A DNA stretch of 64,000 nucleotides from contig DATIHX010000008.1 in the NCBI GenBank assembly GCA_035480235.1, forward strand, positions 96,104-160,103, given 5' to 3'. Each line of letters begins with the position of its first letter. The stretch's first letter is position 1. The notes below the pieces were generated by a model. That model searched no databases. It was not told the origin of the DNA and was given only the letters and a program-made list of their open reading frames with translations. Made by a program: the position numbers and the translations under genes. This DNA is from Candidatus Saccharimonadales bacterium (GTDB lineage: Bacteria; Patescibacteriota; UBA1384; 2-12-FULL-50-11). Positions 4,269 through 52,707 of this stretch are shown piece by piece.

Positions 4269-5209
4269 TTACCTCCTTGCGGCCTCGTTCGCCGCACCTC
4301 ACACTGGTCGATGTTAATATTGGACAAGACTTCCATCTTGACCCAGACCCGGTGATAGCTGTCGGCACCAGAGCCGATCACCACCACCTCGACGACAGAT
4401 GCCGTCGCGACGACTTGGCCGTTGACGTAAACGGTTAGTTGTTCGCGAAGATTTGGAACCGGTTCGTTGCAACTCCACTTGATTGGCAGATAGCGGCAGA
4501 GCTTGATCGGAGCCGAATTGGCACCAACCTTTTCTTCCCGAAGCCGATTGTTTTCGTCGGTCAAGTCTTTAATGCGACGCATCAGATCGTCGGTATTGGC
4601 GCCACCTGTTTGGGCAGCGTCGCGTTTCCCTTGATCGTAAGCTTGCTTAATCGCCGCGTCGAGCTGACCAGCAGTCATGGATTGACCACCCTTGGTGGTT
4701 GCTACCGTTTCTGGAGCGTCAGTGTCGATGACGAACTGCGTTGCCGGAGCAGCTGAGGCGTCCTTATTCTGGTTGCCTTTACTGTCCTGGCCGACGAAGT
4801 AGGCTTCGATCGAATGTTCCAAGCCAAAGAACATGTCGTCGACCTGGATGTCGTGCGCGTTATGATTGGAAAGACCTTTGACGTGGATCTCCTCGTCCTT
4901 AAGCGCTCTAATACAACCACCACGAGGAAGACGAATTCTCCCTTGGTACGGTGGCGCATCAAATACGGCAACAATCGAGCCGTCAAAACGGATGCCGCAT
5001 GGACCAGGGTTGTGATCACCAGTCAGCGGCAAAACCCGGTAGTCCAGGTACGGACCGAGCAAGTCTTCACCAAGCCGGACCGCAACTCGGCCTTGACTGG
5101 TGTAGCGAATGTGCCATGACCCTATGAGCGCTGGCTTGACAGCCGCATTCGCTGACAAAGACAGCCCTAGGGTGAGAACGACGAAAATCAAAGCAAGAAT
5201 TTTTCTCAC
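4265..5209 (-). CDS. secreted hypothetical protein (Sec signal peptide)
   Basis: GTG start with AGGAG upstream. Signal peptide MRKILALIFVVLTLGLSLSANA. A 4-nt overlap with the downstream gene suggests translational coupling. Confidence 0.75.
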   Translation of the reverse strand: MRKILALIFVVLTLGLSLSANAAVKPALIGSWHIRYTSQGRVAVRLGEDLLGPYLDYRVLPLTGDHNPGPCGIRFDGSIVAVFDAPPYQGRIRLPRGGCIRALKDEEIHVKGLSNHNAHDIQVDDMFFGLEHSIEAYFVGQDSKGNQNKDASAAPATQFVIDTDAPETVATTKGGQSMTAGQLDAAIKQAYDQGKRDAAQTGGANTDDLMRRIKDLTDENNRLREEKVGANSAPIKLCRYLPIKWSCNEPVPNLREQLTVYVNGQVVATASVVEVVVIGSGADSYHRVWVKMEVLSNINIDQCEVRRTRPQGGK

Positions 5210-11856: not shown

Positions 11857-11891
11857 GGAGTTTGCTTAGTATAACCTATACTTCTAGTTCT

Positions 11892-12075
11892 CAGCCAGGG
11901 CTGCCGTTCTATTCCAAAGGACAAGGGGCTTTTTGCGAGGCAGCCCCTTATCCTGTGGAGACTCCAATCCCTTCTCGCTTCTCTACGAGGTAAGGAGAAA
12001 ACCTCCGACTGCAAACCGGCAAATGGCACTGTTTGCTCCTCCGGTTTTAGGAACTATTTTATAGGCGACAAAAAG
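11892..12075 (+). ncRNA. structured intergenic repeat family, copy A
   Basis: Shares a conserved core and helices with 16825-17008, 38781-38971 and 51192-51383 (see findings). Confidence 0.6.
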
Positions 12076-12087
12076 AGAGGTAATACC

Positions 12088-12116
12088 TTGACTTTTTGGG
12101 ACGAATCTGCTAGTAT
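12088..12116 (+). promoter_or_regulatory. consensus-like extended -10 promoter
   Basis: TTGACT, 17 nt, (TGC)TAGTAT. Confidence 0.7.
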
Positions 12117-12158
12117 TCACCTGTTCTTTTACAGAACGGATACGGCAGGGAGGGATAC

Positions 12159-12770
12159 ATGAAAAGAATTACACTTGGGCTTCAACCTCGGAAAAGCTCC
12201 GGTGCCGGAGAAGTCCTTCTGGGACTTTTCGGAGGCACCCTATCGTTGCAGCGCATAGTCTTGGAGCGGGCATTTAAAGTGTTCCAGCCCAAGGCGCTTG
12301 ATTTCATCTGGCACATTCGGGAGAGCGAGAACCTCATTGCAGAGCCTCACCAGCTTTGGGTCGACTACCAGGCGTCGTTCGTCGATGCTGATTTCGAAGT
12401 TAGCGATAAGCTAACGTTGCTTGGTCAGTATTTGAAGGCGTTCGACGGACACCTCTTCAACGATAGCGAGGTGTGGGATGACGTGCTCCGCAATATGCCA
12501 GACACGCCCTACTGGAACCCCGAGTGGCCAATGCCAGCGCGCATCAAGGTCGGATGGGAGTATAGCAAGCCTCCGTACGATCTCACGGTTATCTATGGAG
12601 CTGACAGCGATGAGCAGATGGCCCACTTGCTCACACACCACCACCTCGACGACATCCTCAACGGGATGTTGCCAATCATTGAGGAATTTCTCAACAGAAA
12701 GGTACAAGAAATACTCAAGATGGATCCTTCGTGGTTCGATGAGGAATCAGAAGTCCTAGTTGAGGATTGA
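12159..12770 (+). CDS. hypothetical protein
   Basis: 203-aa ORF with GGGAGGG upstream, its own promoter and its own terminator. I recognise no motif. Confidence 0.7.
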   Translation: MKRITLGLQPRKSSGAGEVLLGLFGGTLSLQRIVLERAFKVFQPKALDFIWHIRESENLIAEPHQLWVDYQASFVDADFEVSDKLTLLGQYLKAFDGHLFNDSEVWDDVLRNMPDTPYWNPEWPMPARIKVGWEYSKPPYDLTVIYGADSDEQMAHLLTHHHLDDILNGMLPIIEEFLNRKVQEILKMDPSWFDEESEVLVED

Positions 12771-12779
12771 CCACAATTC

Positions 12780-16183: not shown

Positions 16184-16372
16184 TTAACGGTTAATTGCTA
16201 AAAGGAGTAATTTTTGGAGCAAATAGTCGACGCCGGCGAAAATCAGGGTGGCGACGGCCAAAGTGATAACCACCATCAGACTGTGGCGAATGACCGTATC
16301 GCGGTTTGGCCAGATAGTTTTCTTGCCTTCGTCAACGACGCCGTTAATGAAATTGATGGGAGCGAATTTCAT
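16184..16372 (-). CDS. secE: preprotein translocase subunit SecE
   Basis: 62 aa with a single TM helix, in the conserved position upstream of nusG. Confidence 0.85.
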   Translation of the reverse strand: MKFAPINFINGVVDEGKKTIWPNRDTVIRHSLMVVITLAVATLIFAGVDYLLQKLLLLAINR

Positions 16373-16737
16373 TACTTAGCGGCTTTCTTCGGTGCAGCTT
16401 TCTTGGCGGCTGGGGCTTTGGCTTCTGCTTTCTCGACTGGCTTTTCCGCAACTTTTCCGCCAATCGAAATCACTTCCAGCGCGCTCAGGTTCTGGCGATG
16501 GCCGTAGTGGCGAATGTAGCGAACTTTGTTTTTGAACTTCAAGCCGTGGATTTTTTCACCGCGCAGTTCTTCGGTAACTTTAAGGGTGACCGGAGTTTGG
16601 TCGAGTAAACTTTTGACAGTAATGGTCTCGCCGGCCTTCGTCTCCAGGCGGTTAACCTGGATTTTACTGCCCGCCAAAACGAGGTGCTGTTTGCCCCCGA
16701 GCTCGACGACGGCCCAATTGGTTTCGGTAGATGTCAT
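16372..16737 (-). CDS. rplU: 50S ribosomal protein L21 with a Lys/Ala-rich tail
   Basis: WAVVELGGKQHLV...HYGHRQ signature. Confidence 0.9.
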   Translation of the reverse strand: MTSTETNWAVVELGGKQHLVLAGSKIQVNRLETKAGETITVKSLLDQTPVTLKVTEELRGEKIHGLKFKNKVRYIRHYGHRQNLSALEVISIGGKVAEKPVEKAEAKAPAAKKAAPKKAAK

Positions 16738-16824
16738 ATTTTTAGAGTGTAACAGAGAATATTGTACTATTTTTTTAGAAATGCGTCAACGCGAGAAATA
16801 AGATCTTTTGAAGAATGCTTTTTG

Positions 16825-17008
16825 CAGCCAAGGCTACAGTTTTCATTGGAAAGGACAGGGGGCCTATTTGCGAGGCAGCCCCCTATCCTCTCCACTCCAA
16901 CCCCTGCACGCTTCTCACAGAGGTGTGGTGAAAACCTCCGGCTGCAAACCGGCAACTGGCACTGTTTGCTCCTACGGTTTTAGGAACTATTTAATAGCTA
17001 CAAAAAAG
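16825..17008 (+). ncRNA. structured intergenic repeat family, copy B
   Basis: Same architecture as copy A. Confidence 0.6.
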
Positions 17009-17029
17009 CTCGGGATTTCAAACCCGAGC
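17002..17029 (-). terminator. terminator of the membrane protein gene
   Basis: GCTCGGG-TTTGAAAT-CCCGAGC followed by T6 on the minus strand. Confidence 0.75.
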
Positions 17030-17038
17030 ATTGGGGAA

Positions 17039-17416
17039 CTATCTGGAGATAGAGGGCTTTTTTCGGTCAAACCACTCCACGAGGTTATGTGCCTGGAAGT
17101 ATACGAACCACCCCCAGACGAAATAAGCGGCCAGCAGCATTACCCAATCCAAGAGAAAGATGAGGAAGATTGAGAGAGAAAAGTGCTGGTTGTAGAGCTG
17201 CAGCTTGAGAAAGGCTGCTGCCGTCGCCGAGACGAATCCAGTAGGGTATTGGTACAAGAAAAGTGTATCATTGACCACAACCTTAACTGAAGCAAAGATT
17301 GTGAGGCCGGTCAGGATCAAAAAGCCTAAGACCGCCAGAATAATTAAAAAGAGCGTCATAACTTGCCTCCAAGCAAATGTTGAGAAAAGCTTAGCAAAAA
17401 TTCTCGAGAAAGTCAA
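17039..17416 (-). CDS. hypothetical membrane protein
   Basis: 125 aa with multiple hydrophobic helices. It overlaps the rodA stop. Confidence 0.6.
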   Translation of the reverse strand: MTFSRIFAKLFSTFAWRQVMTLFLIILAVLGFLILTGLTIFASVKVVVNDTLFLYQYPTGFVSATAAAFLKLQLYNQHFSLSIFLIFLLDWVMLLAAYFVWGWFVYFQAHNLVEWFDRKKPSISR

Positions 17417-29678: not shown

Positions 29679-30292
29679 CGCAATACCCCTAGGTTAATTT
29701 GGCCGGAAATCGAAAAGGTTACTTGCCGGCTGCCGGAAGTAGCGGCGGTGAAGCCATTGGTGGCCAAGGTAACAGTGGAAAACGGCGTCGGCGTTCTAGC
29801 CTGTCCTTGCTGCCAAACCACCAAAGCTTTGGCCAAGCTGTCCAACGAGGCGGTTTTACCGTCGGCTTTAAACTGGCCGGCGTCGGTGATCGACAGGGTG
29901 GTCAGCTGGACGTTTTTGGGCGTCACGGCGTTGAGCTGGCTATAAAATTTCCCCCAGTCAACCTTACTGCTCAAAGCCGAGGCCAAGAGCGTGTTGCCGG
30001 AGAGGACCTGGTTGACTTCGTCGTTGATGGTTTTGTAATTGGCGGTTTGCAGCAAGGTTTGTTTGGCCGCTAAGGTTTTGTTGGCCGAGCTAATCCGGCT
30101 TTTTTGGTACAAATTTAACCCGACCAGCAAAATGATTTGAACCAGCACCACGAAAAAGATGATCGTCCCGAAGGTGTCGATGGTGTAGGTGTTAGCCGTG
30201 ACAGCGGCGATATCTTCCTTGAGCTGCGGTTGTGGGTTGCTGGGCAACCCCGTTTGCGGTTCCAAAATCCCCTCCTTACTTCTTATATTCAC
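29675..30292 (-). CDS. PilN-like pilus assembly protein
   Basis: Single TM helix plus a coiled-coil periplasmic region. The call rests on position. Confidence 0.55.
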   Translation of the reverse strand: MNIRSKEGILEPQTGLPSNPQPQLKEDIAAVTANTYTIDTFGTIIFFVVLVQIILLVGLNLYQKSRISSANKTLAAKQTLLQTANYKTINDEVNQVLSGNTLLASALSSKVDWGKFYSQLNAVTPKNVQLTTLSITDAGQFKADGKTASLDSLAKALVVWQQGQARTPTPFSTVTLATNGFTAATSGSRQVTFSISGQINLGVLR

Positions 30293-30386
30293 TGTACACG
30301 GCGGGCAAAAGAGGTGTCAATGCTTGAAAAATAGACCCGTTCCAGGTATCGTCGAGCTAATTGAACATTACAACTTGGAGGTTGAT

Positions 30387-31085
30387 GTGAACAAACGAGA
30401 ATTAGTTATTGCCATGTGGGCAGCCGGCATTATTCGATTCGCTGGAGAGGAGGAGGAAGGCTTCCGCTGGCAGCTGCACCGCCCTGGTCGGTTTCCGGAG
30501 GCGTCACTATCGCCGATGAAAATCGAATTTCGCTCAGCGGATACCGACAAGGAAAGACACGCTATAGTAGGTCTTCTGAAACTTAAAGCTGGAAAAGTGA
30601 TCGGCGACTACGTACGCCAAGAAAAATTAACGCCTCCCCAGCTGGTCTGCGGTGTGCCGAACGTTGGCATGACCGTAGCGGCCGGGCTTGTTCAGTACTG
30701 GCCATCGGTATCACAACCCCCTAGATTCTTCGCCGGTCTTCGCAAGCTTAACGATGAAATTAGCCTCAACCCACTGGCAAACTGGCCGAACAACGCCGAA
30801 GTTATGTTGGTTGACGACGTTTTGTCACACGCCGACAGTAAACTTCAAGCAATTAATATCTTAAAAGGACGAGCTTCAGTAAAAGCCATTGCCGTACTGG
30901 TTGACTATCAATTAGGCGGGCAGGCGAAGCTGGAAAGCGCTGGGGTGAAGGTGCTGGCCGTTATGCACGCAACAGAACTGTTGAACACGCTCGTGGATGA
31001 CAATCTCATTCCCTGGAGCACCCACAGTCGTTGCCTTCGTTGGTTTGAAGAAATTCGCCAGCTGACAGCTGCCGTCCGTGCTTGA
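30387..31085 (+). CDS. phosphoribosyltransferase (orotate PRTase-like)
   Basis: GTG start 5 nt after GGAGG. PRPP-binding loop VMLVDDVLSHADSKL. Confidence 0.72.
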   Translation: MNKRELVIAMWAAGIIRFAGEEEEGFRWQLHRPGRFPEASLSPMKIEFRSADTDKERHAIVGLLKLKAGKVIGDYVRQEKLTPPQLVCGVPNVGMTVAAGLVQYWPSVSQPPRFFAGLRKLNDEISLNPLANWPNNAEVMLVDDVLSHADSKLQAINILKGRASVKAIAVLVDYQLGGQAKLESAGVKVLAVMHATELLNTLVDDNLIPWSTHSRCLRWFEEIRQLTAAVRA

Positions 31086-31097
31086 TTCCCCACTCTT

Positions 31098-31120
31098 CCC
31101 GGCTCGTCCGGGATTTTTTT
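31098..31120 (+). terminator. intrinsic terminator
   Basis: CCCGG-CTCGT-CCGGG followed by T7. Confidence 0.7.
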
Positions 31121-31544
31121 AAATAAATTTTGTGTATTCAATAAAGTCCGTGTGTTGCATATCGTTTGGGCGGCGAGCGGTTTCTTTATAGCTGAGCTTT
31201 TCATAGAATTTTATGGCTGGCCAACCGTCGCCGGTTACTAGTCGAATCTTGTGCGCCTTATTCTCTACGGCGTACTCTTCAATCTTCGCCATTAGCTCGG
31301 TGCCGATTCCTTGGCCGCGTCTATTATGAGCAACGATTAAGTCGTTGATAGTACAGACACCGCCTTGAATTTTTCCCTGAATGATTCCTAATATTTCACC
31401 GTTATCTTCGGCCGAAAGATAGAATGGACGAGTAGTAAAATCAACATCAGCCGTACCATAATGCTCTTTATCGGCAATTGGCCATTCAATTTGCTCAAAC
31501 CTTTTAAGAGCATCCGATTTTTCTGTAACAAGATTTATATTCAT
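31119..31544 (-). CDS. GNAT family N-acetyltransferase
   Basis: RRGQGIGTELM acetyl-CoA motif. The start is taken at the internal ATG (MNINLV). Confidence 0.85.
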   Translation of the reverse strand: MNINLVTEKSDALKRFEQIEWPIADKEHYGTADVDFTTRPFYLSAEDNGEILGIIQGKIQGGVCTINDLIVAHNRRGQGIGTELMAKIEEYAVENKAHKIRLVTGDGWPAIKFYEKLSYKETARRPNDMQHTDFIEYTKFI

Positions 31545-31728
31545 GCAGCCCTTACACGACGCAATACGCAACCTCTCGCTGGAGTTTGAAGTTGATCTTA
31601 GCCATCTCAATAGTCTAAATAATAAGCTCAAACTTGTAACAGTCAATTCTTTTTCAGCTAAGGGTTTGCTATATTAGCATCGGTTGATACGTTGCCCAGA
31701 AAAGTGGCAGCTAGACCAAGGAAGTATC

Positions 31729-32505
31729 ATGCCAAGAACGTTAACATTAGAGCGCGAGCTCCTTCGCACCTTTAAGAGGTTGGACAAGTGGTCCGACTTC
31801 CTCGACCTATGGCCCCAGGTTGACACCGAAGAGGAGGCAAACAGTCTACTCTTCGTCGGGACTAAAATACTGTTAAGCACCACCCTACTGGACGCAAAAG
31901 CATTTTTGGAGGTAAGCGAACGGGCAGATTTTTATCTAACCATCAGTAATCACTCCAATCGCACATTGGCCACGACTGCCCAGCAACTAATCGTGAAGTA
32001 TCTTCTCCCGCAAGCTCAGACCGAAAACAGCTGGGCCGAATTGCATCTGAAGTTTCTGAAGTTTCTCGAGGAGCCGCTAACGAGCCTCTATGAGCCGCCG
32101 TATCCCCGTTTTGTTCACCAATACTTGTCAGATAGACTACTGAAAGCCACGCTTGGAGCAAAGCCCCGGTTAACGGCTCTAACACCGGTTTCCCCAGAGC
32201 TTCTAGGCCCACTAGTCGCTTGGGGCCTGGTTAGTGAACTTAGCTACTATCAGCTCACCGACTCCCAGAGGAAGCTCCTGGTGGAGTACTTTTCAAAGTA
32301 TCTCAAAGAACGGGAGCTCAGTCCGCTGGGTGCGTTCCAGAATTTTTACCCGAACGCGGGTTGGGATCGGATTAATAATGAGGTCTTGAGACATGGGGTG
32401 GATCAGCGGGTAGCTGAAGCCTTAGTTAGTATTACAGGCCACCAAGACTTTCACGCAGCCGCTCAAGGCCGGGAACCAACAGCGCTCCTCAAGGCCCTTG
32501 CTTAG
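31729..32505 (+). CDS. hypothetical protein
   Basis: ATG preceded by AAGGAAG. I recognise no motif. Confidence 0.6.
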   Translation: MPRTLTLERELLRTFKRLDKWSDFLDLWPQVDTEEEANSLLFVGTKILLSTTLLDAKAFLEVSERADFYLTISNHSNRTLATTAQQLIVKYLLPQAQTENSWAELHLKFLKFLEEPLTSLYEPPYPRFVHQYLSDRLLKATLGAKPRLTALTPVSPELLGPLVAWGLVSELSYYQLTDSQRKLLVEYFSKYLKERELSPLGAFQNFYPNAGWDRINNEVLRHGVDQRVAEALVSITGHQDFHAAAQGREPTALLKALA

Positions 32506-32659
32506 CCTATCTTTCTTCCCCGGAAAATCCGGGGATTTTTATTTCTGCAGGGGTTAGTTGACGCATTTCAAACAGCAGCTATAAATGCCGATGATGATTT
32601 CAAATTAAAAGATTTAGTCACGACTTTCAACTTATCAGGCGATTTATTAGCCACCAGGG

Positions 32660-33040
32660 CTAGCTAGTAATGTACCGACTCCCGGATTTTGAATAAGCTT
32701 CAACTTCGTATTTGTTGTCACTGTAACCTTTAGTTAAAGATTCGATTGTGTAAAGAAACGGGTGGATGAACGGTTCTCTTTCATACTGCTGGACGTGAAT
32801 CAACTCGTGAGCTAAATCTTTTTCATCAGCTGTCGGTCCTAGCTGAACGACACTGCCATTAACTAACGCTCTGATGCCCTTTTGACCCGGCAACCAAGAG
32901 TACCACCAAAAGCTCCTCACCTTAAAAATAAAGGCAAACGGTTTACGTGATACAGCCAAGCTGAGGGGAAGCGACAAAAGCACTAAAACCAAACCCACTA
33001 TAGTCCAAGGCAGATTCAGTATGAAGCTAATTAGTTTCAT
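32660..33040 (-). CDS. membrane-anchored HExxH metallopeptidase-like protein
   Basis: N-terminal TM helix and LAHELIHVQQ motif. Confidence 0.6.
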   Translation of the reverse strand: MKLISFILNLPWTIVGLVLVLLSLPLSLAVSRKPFAFIFKVRSFWWYSWLPGQKGIRALVNGSVVQLGPTADEKDLAHELIHVQQYEREPFIHPFLYTIESLTKGYSDNKYEVEAYSKSGSRYITS

Positions 33041-33692
33041 CGAGCCGGAAGAGTCCGTAAGTCATAAAACCGAAGCCAGTTCCCGGCCCGATGGCCGAAT
33101 TCAGTTCTTTAATTTCAAGGTTATTTTCTTTCGCTAATTCCGGCAGTAACTTTAAATCTGCAAAATCACCCCAAGAAAGATATACTCTTGCCCCCGGCTT
33201 TAGATGACTTTTTAACTCACGGAAAAATCGTTTAGTTGCTTGGTTGTTTTCGTCCCAAAAACAGATTTCGGTTTTATTGGATGGTTTTTTAGCCGTAAAA
33301 GGTGGATTGATTGTTATTACGTCGAATTTTTTGTCTTTCACTGGTTCAAATAAATCCCCTTCGATGAACTCGATATTCTTCAGTCCTAATTTCTTTTTAT
33401 TAAAGTTAGCGTTCTTGACCGCTTCTGGATTAAGGTCAACACCAATAACGTGACCCGCTCCGAGCGTGGCTGCTTTTAGGGCAATAACTCCCATTCCAGT
33501 ACACAGGTCAAGCACCTCGTCGCCTTTATAAACCTCCATTACCTCACACATCAATCGACTATCTGAGCCGCCGCCATAGACGTGAGGAAAGATTGTTAGG
33601 TCTAAATCCACCAAGTTCTTATCGTATGGGTCACTTAGTGTACTGATTTTTTTAATTTCTTCCGCCTGACGTTGCAAAGACGCTTTTGTCAT
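33027..33692 (-). CDS. class I SAM-dependent methyltransferase (NPPF type)
   Basis: DLCTGMGVIAL motif I and ITINPPF motif IV. The start ATG overlaps the SET gene stop. Confidence 0.85.
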   Translation of the reverse strand: MTKASLQRQAEEIKKISTLSDPYDKNLVDLDLTIFPHVYGGGSDSRLMCEVMEVYKGDEVLDLCTGMGVIALKAATLGAGHVIGVDLNPEAVKNANFNKKKLGLKNIEFIEGDLFEPVKDKKFDVITINPPFTAKKPSNKTEICFWDENNQATKRFFRELKSHLKPGARVYLSWGDFADLKLLPELAKENNLEIKELNSAIGPGTGFGFMTYGLFRLDETN

Positions 33693-34189
33693 CTCATTTT
33701 TCCTAGGATAAACCAGGCGAAGTTGTTGCCGTATTTTTGTTGGAGCTCCGGCTTTTGCCAATCACGGCCGGTAATATGATGGCGGCACGTGGGGTTGCCA
33801 CAGCTACACTCAAAGTTATCGTCGTTATTAAAAATCGTGGCGTAGTCGACGCTTAACTCTTCACCGGCGTGAATATCCCGTAGAGCCACGCAGGCGATTT
33901 GCCCATTGATAGCCATATTCGGCTCACAGCAGTGGTTGAAGAAAATCATCGACTCTTCGAACTCGTCCTTAGTCAGCGGAGCCATATAAATATCATCGGT
34001 AATTTGAATATGAGAGTGATTAACAATATCCCAATTAGCCTCTAGAGTTGCCCGGTCAATTAGATGGCCATTTTTAACGGCTAATAGCTCACCTTTTTTA
34101 ATAGCCTCTTTTGCAAAAAAACCTCGGCCGCTGATGTGGCTCGGCTTTCCTTTTTCGGTCTTTGGTGAAATCCACGAAGCAACACTCAT
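33689..34189 (-). CDS. SET-domain protein (putative lysine methyltransferase)
   Basis: GRGFFA..., FFNHCCEPN, ELSVDY and post-SET CSCGNPTCR. Confidence 0.85.
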   Translation of the reverse strand: MSVASWISPKTEKGKPSHISGRGFFAKEAIKKGELLAVKNGHLIDRATLEANWDIVNHSHIQITDDIYMAPLTKDEFEESMIFFNHCCEPNMAINGQIACVALRDIHAGEELSVDYATIFNNDDNFECSCGNPTCRHHITGRDWQKPELQQKYGNNFAWFILGKMR

Positions 34190-34260
34190 AGACGTATTTT
34201 ACTCCTGGGATTAGGATTGTCGAGCTATAACTTTTTAATAGAATTGGCTAGTTCGGGGAA

Positions 34261-34977
34261 ATGTTCAATAAATGTTTGGTGGTCAAGGGCGAGCGTAAAC
34301 ACGATATGACCAAGTACGATTCTGAGTGGTTCACGCTCAAAAAGATAGTTAAATGCAAAAAGTGTGGTCGAGCCGTTTCCTCTTATTGGGGTCGCAAGAA
34401 CATCTACCTCCGCTGTAGCGGCTCAGGCCAGAATAGCTGTGGCAACCCAAATACCGCCGAATCGCTCGTCATTGGCCCGATTATCGATGATATCGCTCAA
34501 GCTCAAGTACCCGAGAATCTTATCCCAAAAGTGATTGCTGAACTAAAGAATCGGCACGAAAACCAGCAGCTCTATTTCACGCAAAATATCGAGCAAACCA
34601 GGAAAGAGTACGACGGAATCAAGGAAAAAATGAAAAGAATTTACTACGACCTAATGGACGGTCGTATTACTCCGCAGCTGCACGACGAAATCGCAAATGA
34701 ATTAGAAGGTCGGCAGCAGATTCTTAACGACCGGCTCAAAAAGCTAACGAGTGATAACAAAAGCTTCCAAGTAACCGCTTCTTACCTGTTAGACCTCGCC
34801 CAGCGAGCTTCTGAGCTTTTCAAATGTTCGAATTACGAGCTTAGACACAAGCTTCTGAGTTACATGCTTTCGAACATCGAATTAGAGGACAAAAAGCTCT
34901 CGTATGTGCTCAACGACCCCTTTAAAACCATCATCGAGCAAAAGAAAAAGGCCCAAGCTGGACCTAATTCTACTATT
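34261..34977 (+). pseudogene. C-terminal fragment of a large serine recombinase (zinc ribbon plus coiled coil, no catalytic domain)
   Basis: CKKCG...LRCSG...CGN zinc-ribbon pattern and coiled coil. The resolvase N-terminus is missing. The ORF tail reads through the antisense of tRNA-Trp. Confidence 0.6.
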
Positions 34978-35051
34978 TGGCAGGGACGGGGAGAATCGAA
35001 CTCCCAGTTCGGGTTTTGGAGACCCGTGGTTTACCATTAACCGACGTCCCT
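34978..35051 (-). tRNA. tRNA-Trp (CCA)
   Basis: Folded by hand: acceptor AGGGACG/CGTCCCT, anticodon loop CTCCAAA, T-arm GGGAG-TTCGATT-CTCCC, CCA encoded. Confidence 0.92.
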
Positions 35052-35096
35052 AAAGAACTGTTTAATCTTACCAATTGTTGCTCTTTGGGTCGAGGT

Positions 35097-35120
35097 AAGA
35101 AAAAAGGCCCCGAAGGGGCC
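35097..35120 (-). terminator. terminator after the kinase-like gene
   Basis: GGCCCC-GAA-GGGGCC followed on the minus strand by a U-run. Confidence 0.75.
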
Positions 35121-35128
35121 GTGGTAAT

Positions 35129-35701
35129 TCAGCGATAGAATTGGATAACTTCCCAGTTGTCGGTAGCCCAGCACTTCAAAAACTGATGAAGATTAGCCAA
35201 CTCCCCGGTGTTGTTAACGACAACATCCGCCATCGCGATGGGACCGCCAGTCTGAAGGTTCTCCAGCTGGGCGTGATCACGAGCGATAGCATCCTCACGA
35301 GAAAGCGCCCGATCAGGCCGTTTGGCGGCTCGATCATAGCGCAATTCTGGCGGGGCCCAGACGGCCATAACGATCATTTGAGGAAACCTCTCCTTGAGAA
35401 ATAGGTACTCAGCCCAAGAGTAAAGGCCATCAATGACCGTGTCTCCCAACTTGAGTTTCGCCTCAATCTCTTCCAGGTTAAGCAATGCCATTGCCGCCGG
35501 GCCGTGATCCCTGCGGAGCTGTTCGCGAAGCGGTTTCTCATGTTCCTGGGTGTGGGGTAATCCTTTTTCATCAAGAACCCTCAAGACCGTGCCACCGAAA
35601 TAGACCTTCTCAAAACGCATATATTCGACGAGGTACGAGACAACCTCGCCCTTTCCGCTGAAGGGCATCCCTACAACGGCAATCAGACGATTACTTGCCA
35701 T
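35129..35701 (-). CDS. P-loop nucleotide/nucleoside kinase-like protein
   Basis: Walker A VVGMPFSGKGEV, ~190 aa, kinase-sized. Confidence 0.6.
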   Translation of the reverse strand: MASNRLIAVVGMPFSGKGEVVSYLVEYMRFEKVYFGGTVLRVLDEKGLPHTQEHEKPLREQLRRDHGPAAMALLNLEEIEAKLKLGDTVIDGLYSWAEYLFLKERFPQMIVMAVWAPPELRYDRAAKRPDRALSREDAIARDHAQLENLQTGGPIAMADVVVNNTGELANLHQFLKCWATDNWEVIQFYR

Positions 35702-35748
35702 AGCGGAATACTACTTGTTTTCAACCGAGATGTCCAGACCCTCAGGCC

Positions 35749-35913
35749 TTACTTACTCTCTTTGTGAGCGGTGGCTTTTTGGCAACGCTTGCAAAACTTC
35801 ATCAACTCCAGGCGGGTTGGGGTTTTGACTTTGTTTTTCTCACTATAATAGTTCCGTTCTTTGCAGACGGAGCATTCCAGCGTGATGCGTTCGCGGGTGG
35901 ATTTCTTGGCCAT
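35749..35913 (-). CDS. rpmG: 50S ribosomal protein L33 (zinc-binding type)
   Basis: Hand-translated 54 aa, [54 protein letters not shown]. It falls below the ORF-track size cut-off. Confidence 0.9.
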
Positions 35914-35969
35914 TTGTTTTTCTAGTTTATCTGAAAAATATTAAACTGTCCAGATTATATTGTTTTTTG

Positions 35970-36041
35970 AGCCGCCCGTGGGAATTGGACCCACGACCCC
36001 TTCCTTACCATGGAAGTGCTCTGCCACTGAGCTAGGGCGGC
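35970..36041 (-). tRNA. tRNA-Thr (GGT)
   Basis: Acceptor GCCGCCC/GGGCGGC and anticodon loop ATGGTAA. The T-loop reads TCCAATT, with C at position 55, which is unusual. Confidence 0.82.
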
Positions 36042-38750: not shown

Positions 38751-38780
38751 GCTGCAGAACTATTTTTTATTTACTGTCTT

Positions 38781-38971
38781 ATGTGGCTAGCGCCACTGAC
38801 TATTATTTGAGGGTGAGGGGGCTAATTTGCTAAGCCGCCCCCTACACCCTCAAACTCCCTACCCCCGCAAGCTTCCTTTGCGGGGCAGTGGTGCAAGCTG
38901 ATGGCTGTCAACCGGCAACTGGCACTGTTTCCTCCATCAGCTTGAAGAACTATTTTATCGGCGGCAAAAAA
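38781..38971 (+). ncRNA. structured intergenic repeat family, copy C
   Basis: See findings. Confidence 0.6.
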
Positions 38972-38984
38972 TTGGGGAAAAGCA

Positions 38985-39013
38985 TTGACAATTAGTTCGA
39001 AATATGCTATAGT
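38985..39013 (+). promoter_or_regulatory. consensus extended -10 promoter
   Basis: TTGACA, 17 nt, (TGC)TATAGT. Confidence 0.72.
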
Positions 39014-39037
39014 TTCTCGGTGTGACGCAACACAAAT

Positions 39038-39295
39038 ATGATTATGCGCACACCACTAAACGGCCTTCGGCCGCCAACAGCATTGCCGCAAGGCATTACT
39101 ATCGTCAACGTTCAGGTACTTTGGGCGACGGGAATACCTGTCTTTGTAAGCCTACCAGCTGGTGTTGAACTAGCTAGTCAGGACTTCATTGGTGGTGTTA
39201 TCCGTTTACCTAAAGGCTCTTACTACTGGAGCTGGCAACTTACCATCTGGGTAGAGTGTCTAACCGAAGTAGTCAGGAGCGGCACTTGGATATGA
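39038..39295 (+). CDS. hypothetical small protein
   Basis: 85-aa ORF lying between a consensus promoter and a terminator. Confidence 0.6.
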   Translation: MIMRTPLNGLRPPTALPQGITIVNVQVLWATGIPVFVSLPAGVELASQDFIGGVIRLPKGSYYWSWQLTIWVECLTEVVRSGTWI

Positions 39296-39299
39296 ATTC

Positions 39300-39328
39300 T
39301 TTGCTCGCCTTCCCAGGCGAGCTTTTTC
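39300..39328. terminator. bidirectional terminator
   Basis: GCTCGCC-TTCCCAG-GCGAGC followed by T5. Confidence 0.75.
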
Positions 39329-39562
39329 TTACGCGGATTTGGCGGGAGTTGAAGTAGCGGCAGCGGGGACGCGGGCGGTTTTGGAGTTCAGGCCGGCGGC
39401 TTTGAGAGTCCGGCGGCAACGGGAACAGATATACAAACCGTTCCACTTTTGAAGGTTTGGCCGCATCAGCCGCTTGGTTTTATGCAGCGACTTGGGGCGG
39501 TTGTTGGCGGATACGGCAGTTTTACCGCAGAGCGCACAAAATGTATTTTTCGAAACTTCCAT
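39329..39562 (-). CDS. rpmB: 50S ribosomal protein L28
   Basis: CALCGK...NNRPKSLHKTKRLMRPNLQ pattern. Confidence 0.88.
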   Translation of the reverse strand: MEVSKNTFCALCGKTAVSANNRPKSLHKTKRLMRPNLQKWNGLYICSRCRRTLKAAGLNSKTARVPAAATSTPAKSA

Positions 39563-43058: not shown

Positions 43059-43979
43059 TTACGGGTGAGTTCGTTTGCTGTCGTGAGCAGCTAACAGCCC
43101 CGTTCTAGTGAGCCAAATAATTTGAATCCTGCTCAAACCCGTCTCATTTACCACGTCTCTCATCCGCAGCCACTGCTCTTCTTCGAGAAGTTGATGGCTA
43201 GCCAAAGCTTTCTCGAGTTCGGCCTGCCAGCTGTCAGGATGATGAACGGTCTTTCCGGGGTTGAGGTAGTAACCCCTGGCCCCTTTTTCAAGACTGCGAA
43301 GCCTTTGATGACAGGCAGGCGAACAAGTTCTCCGCCGGCGCATCCCCTTGACAATAAGGTTATTGCATTCGGGATTCTCGCACTTGCTTTTATCAAGCAA
43401 CGCTGAGAGCTCCGCGAAGCCTTCTCGTGTCAGAACGATTCGATTGCGGTCAACCCGCCGCCAACCGGCAATTCTCCCTGTTAAGCACCAATTTTCAATC
43501 GTTTTCTCATCCTTAACACCCGTTTTAGTGCACGCCTTCTTAAGGCTGACGCAAGACTTCTTCAAGGCCTGGGGGCCGAAGAGTTTCTTAATCAACCGCA
43601 ATCTCCGGTGAACAGGGGGGTAATGCGGCCAGGTTGACAAGGCAAGTGTCTTAGCGATGTATCCGATGGAGTAACCTTGCCTATAAAGTGCCCAAACAAC
43701 GAACAAAGACTTCAGCTCGTAATATCCTCTTGGTCGCGGCCGAACTCCTTCTGTTGTATGCCGAACTGGTTGATCAAGCTTATTGAAAACAAAACGGAGC
43801 TGACCGCTGGATAGATCCAATTGATCCAGGATTTCTTGGAACGCATAGCCCTGGTCGATCAACGTCTGAACCTCCCTCATCCGGCGCTGAATACGAAGTT
43901 GGGTACTGCCTTTTACCTGACCGGGTCGTTTGGCTTTAACCACCCCAAGAGGTGGCGTGCGATCTAATTGTTGAGACAT
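43059..43979 (-). CDS. multi-HTH protein with a zinc ribbon and a HYPP module
   Basis: The start ATG is preceded by GGAGG. Excisionase/MerR-like HTH segments (ETGLSRIQIIWLTRTGLL; TIENWCLTGRIAGWRR), CENPEC...CSPAC and WPHYPP. Confidence 0.7.
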   Translation of the reverse strand: MSQQLDRTPPLGVVKAKRPGQVKGSTQLRIQRRMREVQTLIDQGYAFQEILDQLDLSSGQLRFVFNKLDQPVRHTTEGVRPRPRGYYELKSLFVVWALYRQGYSIGYIAKTLALSTWPHYPPVHRRLRLIKKLFGPQALKKSCVSLKKACTKTGVKDEKTIENWCLTGRIAGWRRVDRNRIVLTREGFAELSALLDKSKCENPECNNLIVKGMRRRRTCSPACHQRLRSLEKGARGYYLNPGKTVHHPDSWQAELEKALASHQLLEEEQWLRMRDVVNETGLSRIQIIWLTRTGLLAAHDSKRTHP

Positions 43980-44028
43980 CCGATACCTCCGAAGGTGGAA
44001 ATGTGCGCCCGAAAATCCGAGCAATTGA

Positions 44029-50886: not shown

Positions 50887-51159
50887 ATGCGCATGCTTAA
50901 CTTCGTCCTAATCTTGATTGTTTGCCAGCTTGCTTTGGCTATTTACTCCTTCCTGGAGGGAAAATGGGGCAAGAAAAACTCCTCCAAGCTACTCCTTGCT
51001 GGAGTAACGACTATGACTACCTATCTTTCGTTTCTGTTGCTAGCACCACTGCTGAAGGATAATCTGTCACCCTATCTTGTGGGAAGCAGCATCTCTTTGT
51101 TTGTCTGTTTGCTCAGCTATTACTGGGGCTTAGTCAGCTCTCGTAACAATGCCGCCTAG
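50887..51159 (+). CDS. small membrane protein
   Basis: 90 aa with three hydrophobic helices. Confidence 0.55.
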   Translation: MRMLNFVLILIVCQLALAIYSFLEGKWGKKNSSKLLLAGVTTMTTYLSFLLLAPLLKDNLSPYLVGSSISLFVCLLSYYWGLVSSRNNAA

Positions 51160-51163
51160 TTCC

Positions 51164-51187
51164 GCCGCGCGCCAGCGCGGCTTTTTT
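51164..51187 (+). terminator. intrinsic terminator
   Basis: GCCGCGC-GCCA-GCGCGGC followed by T6. Confidence 0.8.
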
Positions 51188-51191
51188 GATT

Positions 51192-51383
51192 CTTTTTGCC
51201 GTCAATACAATAGTTCCTAAAACCGGAGGAGGAAACAGTGCCAGTTGCCGGTTGACAGCCGGAGGTTTTCTCCTTGTTCCCGACCAGGGAAGCGTGCCGG
51301 GGTACGGGGGTTTGGGGGCCTAGGGGGCGGCGTCGCAATAAGCCCCCTGGCCCCCAAATAATAGTAAGTGGCGCTAGCCACAT
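51192..51383 (-). ncRNA. structured intergenic repeat family, copy D
   Basis: Inverted orientation. It begins 10 nt after the radA stop. Confidence 0.6.
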
Positions 51384-51393
51384 AAAATGGTGA

Positions 51394-52707
51394 TTACTTA
51401 ATCGTAAATAATTTCGGCAGATCGCGGATCGAGTTGAATTTTGTCGCGACGGTGTAACCGAGCCGTTTAGCTTCTTTGGCCCGGCGCTCGGCGCCAAAGG
51501 CGGCTCGGACTTCGCCGAGCAAACCGACCTCACCAAAAATCACCAACTTCGGCGGTAAGGTTTTTTTATTTAAGCCGGAGACGCAGGCGGCACAGACGGC
51601 CACATCAACGCCGGGATCTTTCAGCGTAAAGCCGCCAACCACATTCACATAAACATCGTAGGAGCTAAAAGCGGCGCCAAGACGATTTTCCAAAACCGCC
51701 AGCAGTAGCGTTAAACGATTAGCATCGATCCCCTGGGCTGTTCGTTTCGGGTAACCGAAACTGGTTTTCGTCACCAGCGCCTGAATCTCTACCACAAACG
51801 CTCGGCTTCCTTCCATCGTCATCGTCAGCGCTCGGCCGGGCACGTCTTCCGTTAGAAGCCCGGCAAAAATCCGGCCTGGGTCGGCCACTACTTCAAAGCC
51901 GGTTTCGCCGAGCTGCCAAATACCGACTTCTTCGGTCGAACCAAACCGGTTTTTATCGGGCCGAAGCACGCGCAGGCCGGTCCGGCGTTCGCCTTCCAGA
52001 TACAAAACCACATCGACTAAATGCTCCAAAACTCGTGGCCCGGCCATCACCCCTTCTTTGGTCACGTGGCCGACCAACAAAATTGCGACGCCGGTCAGTT
52101 TGGCGAGTTGCTGGAAGCGCCAGCCGTTATCGCGCACTTGGGTGAGCGACCCGGGTGCGCCTGGTAAGGCGTCGTCGTAAATAGTTTGGATAGAATCGAT
52201 CACCACCAGTGCCGGTTTTTCGTTTTTAATGGCCGCGATAATTTTATTGATGTTGCGTTCAGGGCTAAGGCGGAGTTTGGTTTTATTCAGACCCAGGCGG
52301 GTTGAGCGCAAGTGAATTTGCTCCAACGATTCTTCAGCCGAAAAATAGAGCGAATTTGGGACGCTGGCGGCCAGTTGTAAAAGCAGCGTACTTTTACCGA
52401 CGCCCGGGTTGCCAGCGAGTAACATAATCGAGCCCGGCACAATGCCGGGGTCGTCCCCGCCTAACACTCGGTCGAATTCGGCCAGCCCGCTTTGAATGCG
52501 TAAGTGTTTGGCAACGGTAATTTGGCTAATTTCCGTCAGCTCAGCTGGGTCACTATTAACGGCGACGCCGCCCCGGCCAGTGACAGTCGGTTCGATCGCC
52601 TCTTCCACGATCGTATTCCACTCACCACAGACCGGGCATTTGCCGGCCCACGAACCAAAATGCGACCCGCAGCTTTCGCAAACAAAACTTTGTTTCGGCT
52701 TGGCCAT
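51394..52707 (-). CDS. radA: DNA repair protein RadA/Sms
   Basis: C4 zinc finger, GNPGVGKST, KNRFG and a Lon-like C-terminal domain. Confidence 0.95.
   Translation of the reverse strand: MAKPKQSFVCESCGSHFGSWAGKCPVCGEWNTIVEEAIEPTVTGRGGVAVNSDPAELTEISQITVAKHLRIQSGLAEFDRVLGGDDPGIVPGSIMLLAGNPGVGKSTLLLQLAASVPNSLYFSAEESLEQIHLRSTRLGLNKTKLRLSPERNINKIIAAIKNEKPALVVIDSIQTIYDDALPGAPGSLTQVRDNGWRFQQLAKLTGVAILLVGHVTKEGVMAGPRVLEHLVDVVLYLEGERRTGLRVLRPDKNRFGSTEEVGIWQLGETGFEVVADPGRIFAGLLTEDVPGRALTMTMEGSRAFVVEIQALVTKTSFGYPKRTAQGIDANRLTLLLAVLENRLGAAFSSYDVYVNVVGGFTLKDPGVDVAVCAACVSGLNKKTLPPKLVIFGEVGLLGEVRAAFGAERRAKEAKRLGYTVATKFNSIRDLPKLFTIK

Follow-up and report, generated by a model that had tools for sequence, protein, structure and literature searches.

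A dispersed, structured intergenic element of Candidatus Saccharimonadales as a candidate family of small RNA genes

In a contig of a metagenome-assembled genome of a Candidatus Saccharimonadales bacterium, the ribosomal protein gene rplU lies next to a structured intergenic element of about 190 nucleotides (nt), and the same element occurs at three other places in the 64,000 nt analyzed here. We refer to this whole stretch as the window, use positions in it as coordinates throughout, and call the four occurrences copies A, B, C, and D, where copy B is the one beside rplU. The initial annotation of this locus had recognized a repeat copy at 16825–17008 and had proposed a covariance-model search as a check on it. 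We built the model from the four copies and searched the window by full-model scanning. The search found exactly four copies, at 200–207 bits each, and it bears out the repeat beside rplU, which the model puts at 16818–17008 (Table 1). Three of the copies also give a weak match on the opposite strand, at 14–25 bits, and no other signal in the window is above 10 bits. The core 26-mer of copy B occurs 4 times in the window where 0.00 occurrences are expected. The copies are dispersed singly, 5–22 kb apart, the family unit is 175–195 nt long, and the paralogues in the window are 65–82% identical to one another.

The surroundings of copy B are largely as they had been described. The start first given for it, 16825, and the rplU ATG at 16737 are 88 nt apart, and the other end of copy B abuts the intrinsic terminator of a convergent gene for a membrane protein of 125 amino acids (aa; open reading frame, ORF, at 17039–17416 on the minus strand), with its stem at 17008–17029 and its T-run on the minus strand. 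The terminator hairpin of the gene upstream of the rplU slot has a different sequence at every orthologous locus, and because it differs in each genome we assign this edge hairpin to the neighboring gene and not to the element. The rplU promoter is conserved in six orthologous loci and also in a relative, L127, that is without the element. An ACTATTT string at 16768–16774, which had been compared to the conserved tail of the element, sits in the 17-nt spacer of this promoter, beside the −10 box, and its likeness to the tail of the element is a coincidence. Between promoter and gene, the 5′ untranslated region (UTR) of rplU (16738–16760 and orthologues, ATTCTCTGTTACAC[T/A]CTAAAAA) is nearly invariant among relatives and has no Shine-Dalgarno sequence. 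At another relative, L135, the region of the rplU promoter (CGTTGACGATTT...) occurs twice in tandem in the space that separates rplU from the element (4361–4512 of that locus).

The other three copies lie in comparable intergenic positions. Copy A ends 29 nt from the topA ATG and has a promoter at 12088–12116 beside it, copy C is followed by a strong plus-strand promoter at 38985–39013, and beyond copy D lies the terminator of a convergent 90-aa gene. The small genes that adjoin the copies are mutually unrelated and have no match in Pfam or PADLOC. A weak model match at 35830–35940, containing GGAACTATTA, was considered as a degraded copy and rejected, as it is the coding sequence of rpmG (L33).

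Table 1. Coordinates of the element copies in the window, of the parts of copy B, and of the features next to copy B. Helices P1–P5 are named in the orientation of the initial annotation (window plus strand for copies A–C). bp, base pairs.
Feature	Position	Strand	Description
Copy A	11885–12075		199.7 bits; between topA start (11856, minus) and the promoter of a 203-aa ORFan
Copy B, whole unit	16818–17008	leaning minus	Covariance model R1 207 bits, E 1e-52; R2 199.8 bits
Copy C	38777–38971		206.1 bits; begins 27 nt past the stop codon of a 100-aa treble-clef zinc-finger gene
Copy D	51192–51387	orientation opposite to A–C	203.9 bits; begins 7 nt past the radA stop codon
P1 (copy B)	16824–16837		Short 5-bp GC hairpin, GCAGC/GCTAC; both-sided changes in 3 of 5 pairs
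P2 (copy B)	16848–16893		16-bp GC-rich hairpin; conserved 14-nt loop 16864–16877, CTATTTGCGAGGCA; both-sided changes in 10 of 16 pairs
C-rich linker and variable P3 (copy B)	16894–16930		CCCCTG 16901–16906 with CAGAGG 16918–16923
P4 and P5 (copy B)	16931–16981		11-bp P4 (3x3 internal loop in copy B), 6-bp P5; 14-nt apical loop 16950–16963, CGGCAACTGGCACT
Tail (copy B)	16982–17001	minus	ATTTAA 16989–16994, TTAAAT on minus; tail pattern ATTnTA across copies
rplU (bL21)	16372–16737	minus	Pfam Ribosomal_L21p; protein identical to one in GCA_964636455.1
rplU promoter	16761–16789	minus	TTGACG-17-TACAAT; contains the ACTATTT string
Intrinsic terminator of convergent 125-aa membrane-protein gene	17002–17029	minus	Outside the family unit

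A comparison of rplU upstream regions among related genomes, also proposed at the outset, shows that the element is an old resident of this position. As relatives we used contigs that encode close homologues of the proteins neighboring the copies. The rplU slot contains the element, between the terminator of the upstream gene and the rplU promoter, in six genomes, namely the window and five relatives (L126, L130, L132, L133, and L135) whose rplU is 61–81% identical to that of the window. The model scores 141 bits at L126, 90 at L132, 60 at L133, and 55 at L135, and the L130 copy is cut by the contig end. At L127, L136, L139, and L140, where the spacer between RodA and rplU is 0–113 nt, there is no element. 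The radA slot is filled in the window, in L159 (on the same contig as L126; 144 bits, beginning 8 nt past the stop codon), and in L160/L161, where the contigs end inside the copy; in these radA-locus orthologues P1 lies 7–20 nt past the radA stop codon. The slot between topA and dprA is filled in two genomes, the window and L130, whose end holds the orthologue of copy A. A minimum of three of the four slots thus predates the divergence of these genomes.

Contigs from the Logan metagenome assemblies repeatedly end inside the element (the start of L130/L131, the end of L130, and the ends of L160 and L161). The repeat therefore breaks short-read assemblies, which indirectly indicates that those genomes also carry several copies.

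These genomes are far apart at neutral positions. Identity at four-fold degenerate sites is 37% for radA and 41–54% for rplU and nusG, which is to say saturated, and the spacer directly beside copy B is unalignable between the window and L130. Orthologous copies of the element are 79–86% identical, a level similar to or higher than that of the coding genes over all their nucleotide positions. Because orthologous copies are this similar while four-fold sites are saturated, we conclude that each copy has been under long-term purifying selection, rather than being a product of recent transposition or a decaying mobile element.

This bears on the explanation that first suggests itself for a dispersed repeat, namely that it is a non-autonomous mobile element (similar to miniature inverted-repeat or palindrome-associated transposable elements, with a possible origin in IS200/IS605) or a structured site in DNA, or in single-stranded DNA (ssDNA), that serves recombination or replication, in either case with no function as RNA. 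The copies are indeed dispersed and intergenic, metagenome assemblies break within them, every copy adjoins an ORFan that at locus A has been exchanged for an unrelated one, copy B has a 10-nt terminal inverted repeat, and hairpins of ssDNA also tolerate G·T pairs. We nevertheless consider this explanation improbable. The inverted repeat of copy B is not found in A, C, or D, and there are no consistent terminal inverted repeats or target-site duplications. Among the Pfam-scanned ORFs of the 64-kb window there is no integrase or transposase; the recombinase signals are a serine-recombinase zinc-ribbon fragment (34261–35040), about 4 kb from the nearest copy, and a weak resolvase-type helix-turn-helix (43059–44024), neither of them beside a copy. 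There are no near-identical copies at non-orthologous sites, copies A, B, and D are orthologous in relatives despite saturation at synonymous sites, blastn against plasmid and phage collections gave no match, and viral collections gave none either. A simple mobile repeat also has no need for conserved unpaired motifs and a multi-helix fold.

By the features compared here, the element is neither a miniature inverted-repeat transposable element nor an attC site. Repeats such as BOX, RUP, ERIC/IRU, Correia/CREE, bcr1, and REP/BIME are present in high copy number, are near-identical within a genome, carry terminal inverted repeats or target duplications in most cases, and have positions that are not conserved between species. 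The element resembles BOX- and ERIC-type repeats in being multi-copy and intergenic, with stable folds, in lying beside terminators and promoters, and in generating spurious ORFs and assembly breaks, but it differs from them in the divergence of its copies, in their orthologous positions, and in stems that evolve by compensatory change. With attC sites and the ends of IS200/IS605 it has in common a structure that is conserved above sequence, an asymmetry between strands, and small variable ORFs nearby. However, attC is a single bulged hairpin of 57–141 nt with R''/R' core sites that occurs in tandem cassette arrays by intI, and IS200/IS605 ends accompany tnpA/tnpB, whereas the element has four or five helices with conserved loops in its roughly 190 nt and forms no arrays; attC core sites were not searched for.

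To examine the fold, we aligned 12 sequences of the element and counted base pairs that had changed on both sides. Such compensatory changes are found in 26 of 42 pairs (22 of 38 in an earlier alignment). As controls, pairing partners were slid by 1–3 columns and the alignment was shuffled 500 times. With the true partners 85.7% of cells are paired, versus at most 53.4% with slid partners, and all 500 shuffles fall short of the observed values. From these results, we conclude that the base pairs are upheld by compensatory substitution, and that the element is a structured RNA or single-stranded nucleic acid under selection.

The individual helices differ in how constant they are. P2, which was also detected as an inverted repeat (I1), has 16–17 bp across copies with the loop TTGCGARGC. 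P4 shows both-sided changes in 9 of its 11 pairs and P5 in 3 of 6; in copy C and L132 all of P4 is paired, and in the other sequences it contains a 3x3 internal loop. The P5 apical loop is conserved in most copies and has another sequence in L133 and L135. P3 varies in register between copies and carries a loop with a near-invariant CACGCT (16907–16912 in copy B). A GCG in the P2 loop is complementary to a CGC in the P3 loop in every sequence; the pairing is unchanged in 9 of 10 rows, and copy C alters both of its sides, to GCU/AGC. Because the loops are complementary and copy C changes both sides, a candidate contact between the P2 and P3 loops is suggested by this single compensatory event. 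P1 is followed on the plus strand by a T-rich tract (16838–16847), so that it looks like a terminator when read on that strand, and its equivalent in copy D was flagged as terminator-like.

Three further structural candidates were tried and rejected. P4 does not qualify as an intrinsic terminator, as copy C has CAAG/CUUG in place of the A-run and U-run while the helix is kept. A closing helix between the end T-run and the A-run is present in B and L126 and inconsistent elsewhere. A CsrA-type GGA sponge was rejected by eye, since L132 and L135 do not preserve the GGA motifs. Separately, the 5′ arm of P1 (16821–16829, TTTGCAGCC) is perfectly complementary over 9 nt to the P4/P5 junction (16940–16948, GGCTGCAAA), so an alternative pairing is possible; this match is present only in A/B-type copies.

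The three ORFs that run through copy B, 16762..16983 (plus), 16767..16955 (minus), and 16808..17173 (plus), exist as listed, and the initial annotation was right to ascribe them to a conserved nucleotide element and not to a gene, given the frame-shifting indels, the absence of a protein family, and the strong covariation. Its peptide argument needs correction. The string SGCKPATGTV, said to be common to 16808..17173 and 51156..51536, occurs only in the former; the latter, which crosses copy D, has SGCQPATGTV, so that the longest exact string common to the two is PATGTV, and the copy A ORF has only 4-residue strings in common with the copy B ORFs.

A small protein encoded by one of the crossing ORFs would draw on two observations: in A, B, D, and L126 a frame with KTSGC[KQ]PATGTV stays open from one end of the element to the other, and GGAGG is followed by GTG on the other strand, where one annotation carries rplU through the element. 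However, indels shift the frame of the 5′ half from one copy to the next, the frame that is open in other copies has a stop codon in copy C, and the minus-strand mini-ORF behind GGAGG-GTG has 5, 16, or >50 residues, depending on the copy. Protein-level conservation of a crossing ORF had been named beforehand as the finding that would count against a nucleotide element, and a profile of the sole long shared frame ("KTSGCKPATGTV"), when compared with 1.84 billion representative proteins, gave just two weak, irrelevant matches and no protein family. The substitutions, moreover, are compensatory at the level of base pairs. A small protein is therefore extremely improbable, and the three ORFs through copy B are artefacts. 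Taking these lines of evidence together, we consider it highly probable that the element is selected, structured, non-coding, and non-mobile.

The annotation that carries rplU through the element is that of protein P0003 in GCA_034680565.1 (L126, 10001–10267). It gives rplU 210 residues, of which the first 89 are a spurious extension via the element, from a start GTG that is preceded by GGAGG.

Next, we considered how the element relates to the transcription of its neighbors. At B, D, and their orthologues, the convergent or upstream gene ends in a hairpin and T-run at one edge of the element. At C and D, the stop codons of the zinc-finger gene and radA are followed after 7–27 nt by P1 and its T-rich tract, which resemble the terminators of these genes. 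At A and C, a strong canonical promoter 13–14 nt beyond the tail is directed away from the element, and on the other side of A and B lie topA and rplU, the latter with its conserved promoter, both of which are also transcribed away. Thus, in every slot the core is shielded, in that neighboring transcription either terminates before it or fires away from it, and because the core is insulated from its neighbors in this way it would need a promoter of its own.

The only conserved candidate for such a promoter is on the strand that is sense for rplU (the rplU-sense strand; window minus for A–C and plus for D). In 8 of 10 copies this strand has a hexamer of the type TAnAAT (TAAAAT, TACAAT, or TATAAT), located just after the terminator of the upstream gene and 4–10 nt before the A-run that opens P4. 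No promoter-like site was found on the opposite strand of the copies. The base pairs point to the same strand. The non-Watson-Crick cells of P1, P2, and P4 are mostly A·C or C·A in the orientation first assumed, at 21 versus 6, and an A·C or C·A there is a G·U on the rplU-sense strand. Two internal P2 positions illustrate this: they are U-A and G-C in L132 and L135, C·A and A·C in B, L130, and L133, C·A and A·G in copy A, and partly C·A/A·C in L159. Folding energy is lower for the rplU-sense strand in all 8 copies tested, with a mean z-score of −4.1 versus −3.3 for the opposite strand, and in the model-guided alignment the consensus energy is −37.3 versus −28.0 kcal/mol and the structure conservation index 0.49 versus 0.42. 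A further reason to lean to the rplU-sense strand is that P1, read on the opposite strand, would place a terminator at the 5′ end of the RNA itself. We therefore favor the rplU-sense strand as the probable functional one, with moderate confidence. The initial annotation, in describing copy B as divergent from rplU and on the opposite strand, assumed a strand, and the non-Watson-Crick pairs, the folding energies, and the TAnAAT box lean to the other one.

The explanation that we prefer overall, as a tentative choice to which we give not quite an even chance, is that the four copies are old, diverged paralogues of a structured element that would constitute a family of stand-alone small RNA genes. 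In the mechanism that we envisage, the rplU-sense strand would be transcribed from the −10-like TAnAAT box just past the upstream terminator. Folding would begin with P4/P5 and continue with P3 and then P2, whose loops may make the contact described above, and the transcript would end at P1 or be trimmed back to it; on the other strand, P1 would serve as the terminator of the convergent radA and zinc-finger genes. The RNA might then act in trans via its conserved loops, most likely as a protein-binding or regulatory RNA, and at loci A and B read-through could add to the transcription of topA and rplU. As a whole, this chain of steps is somewhat less probable again than the family of small RNA genes as such.

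Several observations weigh against this small RNA gene family as we have described it. The box in copy B is TTAAAT, without an A at −11, and L133 has no clear match. The TAnAAT box has no −35 partner, while the other promoters of the genome are of the canonical type TTGACA-17-TATAAT, and no intrinsic terminator was found at the rplU-sense 3′ end. In independent MAFFT alignments the two strands are nearly equal, at −24.3 versus −22.2 kcal/mol. The less certain P3 helix and the apical mini-helix have their G·U pairs in the orientation first assumed, and the unpaired linker is G-rich on the rplU-sense strand, which is unusual, and C-rich on the opposite strand; a C-rich unpaired linker is a feature of many Gram-positive small RNAs. 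Finally, about a dozen sequences from one narrow clade underlie the explanation.

Some of these observations would be accounted for if the same structured RNA were made from the window plus strand for A–C, which is an unlikely but serious alternative. The element would then be the 3′ UTR of radA at D and of the zinc-finger gene at C, and at A and B it would be transcribed from unrecognized promoters as a C-rich small RNA whose unpaired CUCC, CCCC, and CCUCC could pair with Shine-Dalgarno regions. Besides the C-rich linker and the G·U pairs of P3 and the apical mini-helix, it is consistent with the location of C, D, L159, and L161, which begin 7–27 nt past the stop codon of a co-oriented gene, and with z-scores that are better on that strand for copy C and, by a small margin, for D and L135. 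Yet on that strand P1 and its U-rich tract form a terminator at the 5′ end, which would stop the RNA's own transcript, no conserved promoter was found at loci A and B, the U-run of P4 is lost in copy C and leaves no terminator, and the recurrent internal mismatches of P2 are A·C or C·A.

The positions of A and B also raise the question of a role in cis, in which the element, in the rplU-sense direction, would serve rplU-secE-nusG-rplK (B) and topA (A) either as a long structured leader or as an upstream promoter combined with a regulatory or antitermination RNA. Its place just upstream of rplU is conserved in six genomes, and the short distance of copy A from the topA ATG is suggestive, as no canonical promoter was found there and topA is separated from dprA by an inserted cassette. 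However, rplU is preceded by a conserved canonical promoter and a 5′ UTR of its own, both downstream of the element and both found in L127 as well, and four related loci with a short RodA-rplU spacer are without the element. In this direction C and D lead into convergent genes from the 3′ side and have nothing to regulate, and D is equally conserved. Nor is the element the known L21 leader (RF00559), which it resembles in adjoining rplU; unlike that leader, the element lies upstream of the rplU promoter and not in the 5′ UTR, has no match to RF00559, and has other copies by topA, radA, and the zinc-finger gene. A cis-acting module has, in our estimate, a low probability, slightly below that of a mobile repeat or DNA site.

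With the stand-alone small RNA genes still as the preferred explanation, we compared the element with known RNAs. Searching Rfam 15 with the whole window at gathering thresholds returned 5 tRNAs only, and permissive E-value searches with copies B and D and three relatives' loci gave weak hairpins of microRNA or small nucleolar RNA type, far below threshold. An exact-pattern scan with the apical-loop core yielded chance matches only in 185,579 species genomes, JGI metagenomes, and viral contigs, an outcome explained by L133 and L135, more distant orthologues in which this core has given way to other sequence. Scanning viral contigs with the P2-loop motif instead returned 15 loci, of which 0 were confirmed by the model, and in the literature we found no description of such an element. 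The element appears to be confined to a small clade of Candidatus Saccharimonadales, and it is a lineage-specific structured non-coding RNA or repeat that has not been described previously.

Known families of paralogous small RNAs, such as Qrr1-5, the streptococcal csRNAs, Listeria LhrC1-5, and the RsaE/RoxS type, have recognizable promoters and Rho-independent terminators, are mostly 70–150 nt long, and have known partners. The element is like them in consisting of diverged paralogues with one fold and conserved single-stranded motifs, each in an intergenic slot of its own at a conserved position. It is unlike them in its length, in a TAnAAT box without a −35 element, in having no terminator of its own in the favored orientation, and in having no Rfam match. 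The element therefore behaves most like a paralogous small RNA gene family, yet it matches none. More speculatively, and decidedly unlikely in our view, it could be a new compact class of RNA, built from a long GC hairpin with a loop-loop contact and a capped third helix, specific to the Saccharimonadales lineage, with paralogues at insulated slots and a role beyond antisense, for example as a ribonucleoprotein subunit, a ligand-sensing RNA, or a ribozyme.

Bacteria of the candidate phyla radiation (CPR) such as the Saccharibacteria have tiny genomes, and to our knowledge almost no non-coding RNAs besides the universal ones are known in CPR genomes. The element is a good candidate for a lineage-specific functional RNA because it fills four intergenic slots in 64 kb, is conserved like the neighboring essential genes, and changes by compensation. 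A covariance model for it would also improve the annotation of these genomes, because the element produces spurious ORFs, the wrong 89-residue extension of rplU in GCA_034680565.1, and assembly breaks.

Beside copy A, the ORF between the element and the next terminator differs between genomes. The window (12145–12775, with the ORF at 12159–12770 on the plus strand) and L130 (3701–4348) have in common the element tail, a promoter TTGACT-17-TAGTAT, the 5′ UTR, and the downstream terminator, and enclose a 203-aa ORFan in one genome and an unrelated 215-aa ORFan in the other. In L126, L127, L133, and L135, dprA lies directly beside topA, without an intervening cassette.

The stretch at about 30000–36000 of the window has a GC content of 0.46, versus about 0.52, and carries ORFans together with GNAT, SET-domain, and methyltransferase genes. 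Its 259-aa ORF at 34261–35040 (plus strand) has only a serine-recombinase zinc-ribbon domain and overlaps a tRNA-Trp gene (34978–35051). This stretch may be the remnant of an integrated element.

Just beyond copy C, the region 38985–39330 on the plus strand comprises a near-consensus promoter, TTGACA-17-TATAGT, and the unit of about 300 nt that it drives. This unit contains an 85-aa ORFan (39038–39295) and its own terminator (39304–39330), and its predicted fold has a z-score of −4.3. It has no Rfam or Pfam match and may be either a gene for a small protein or a further non-coding RNA.

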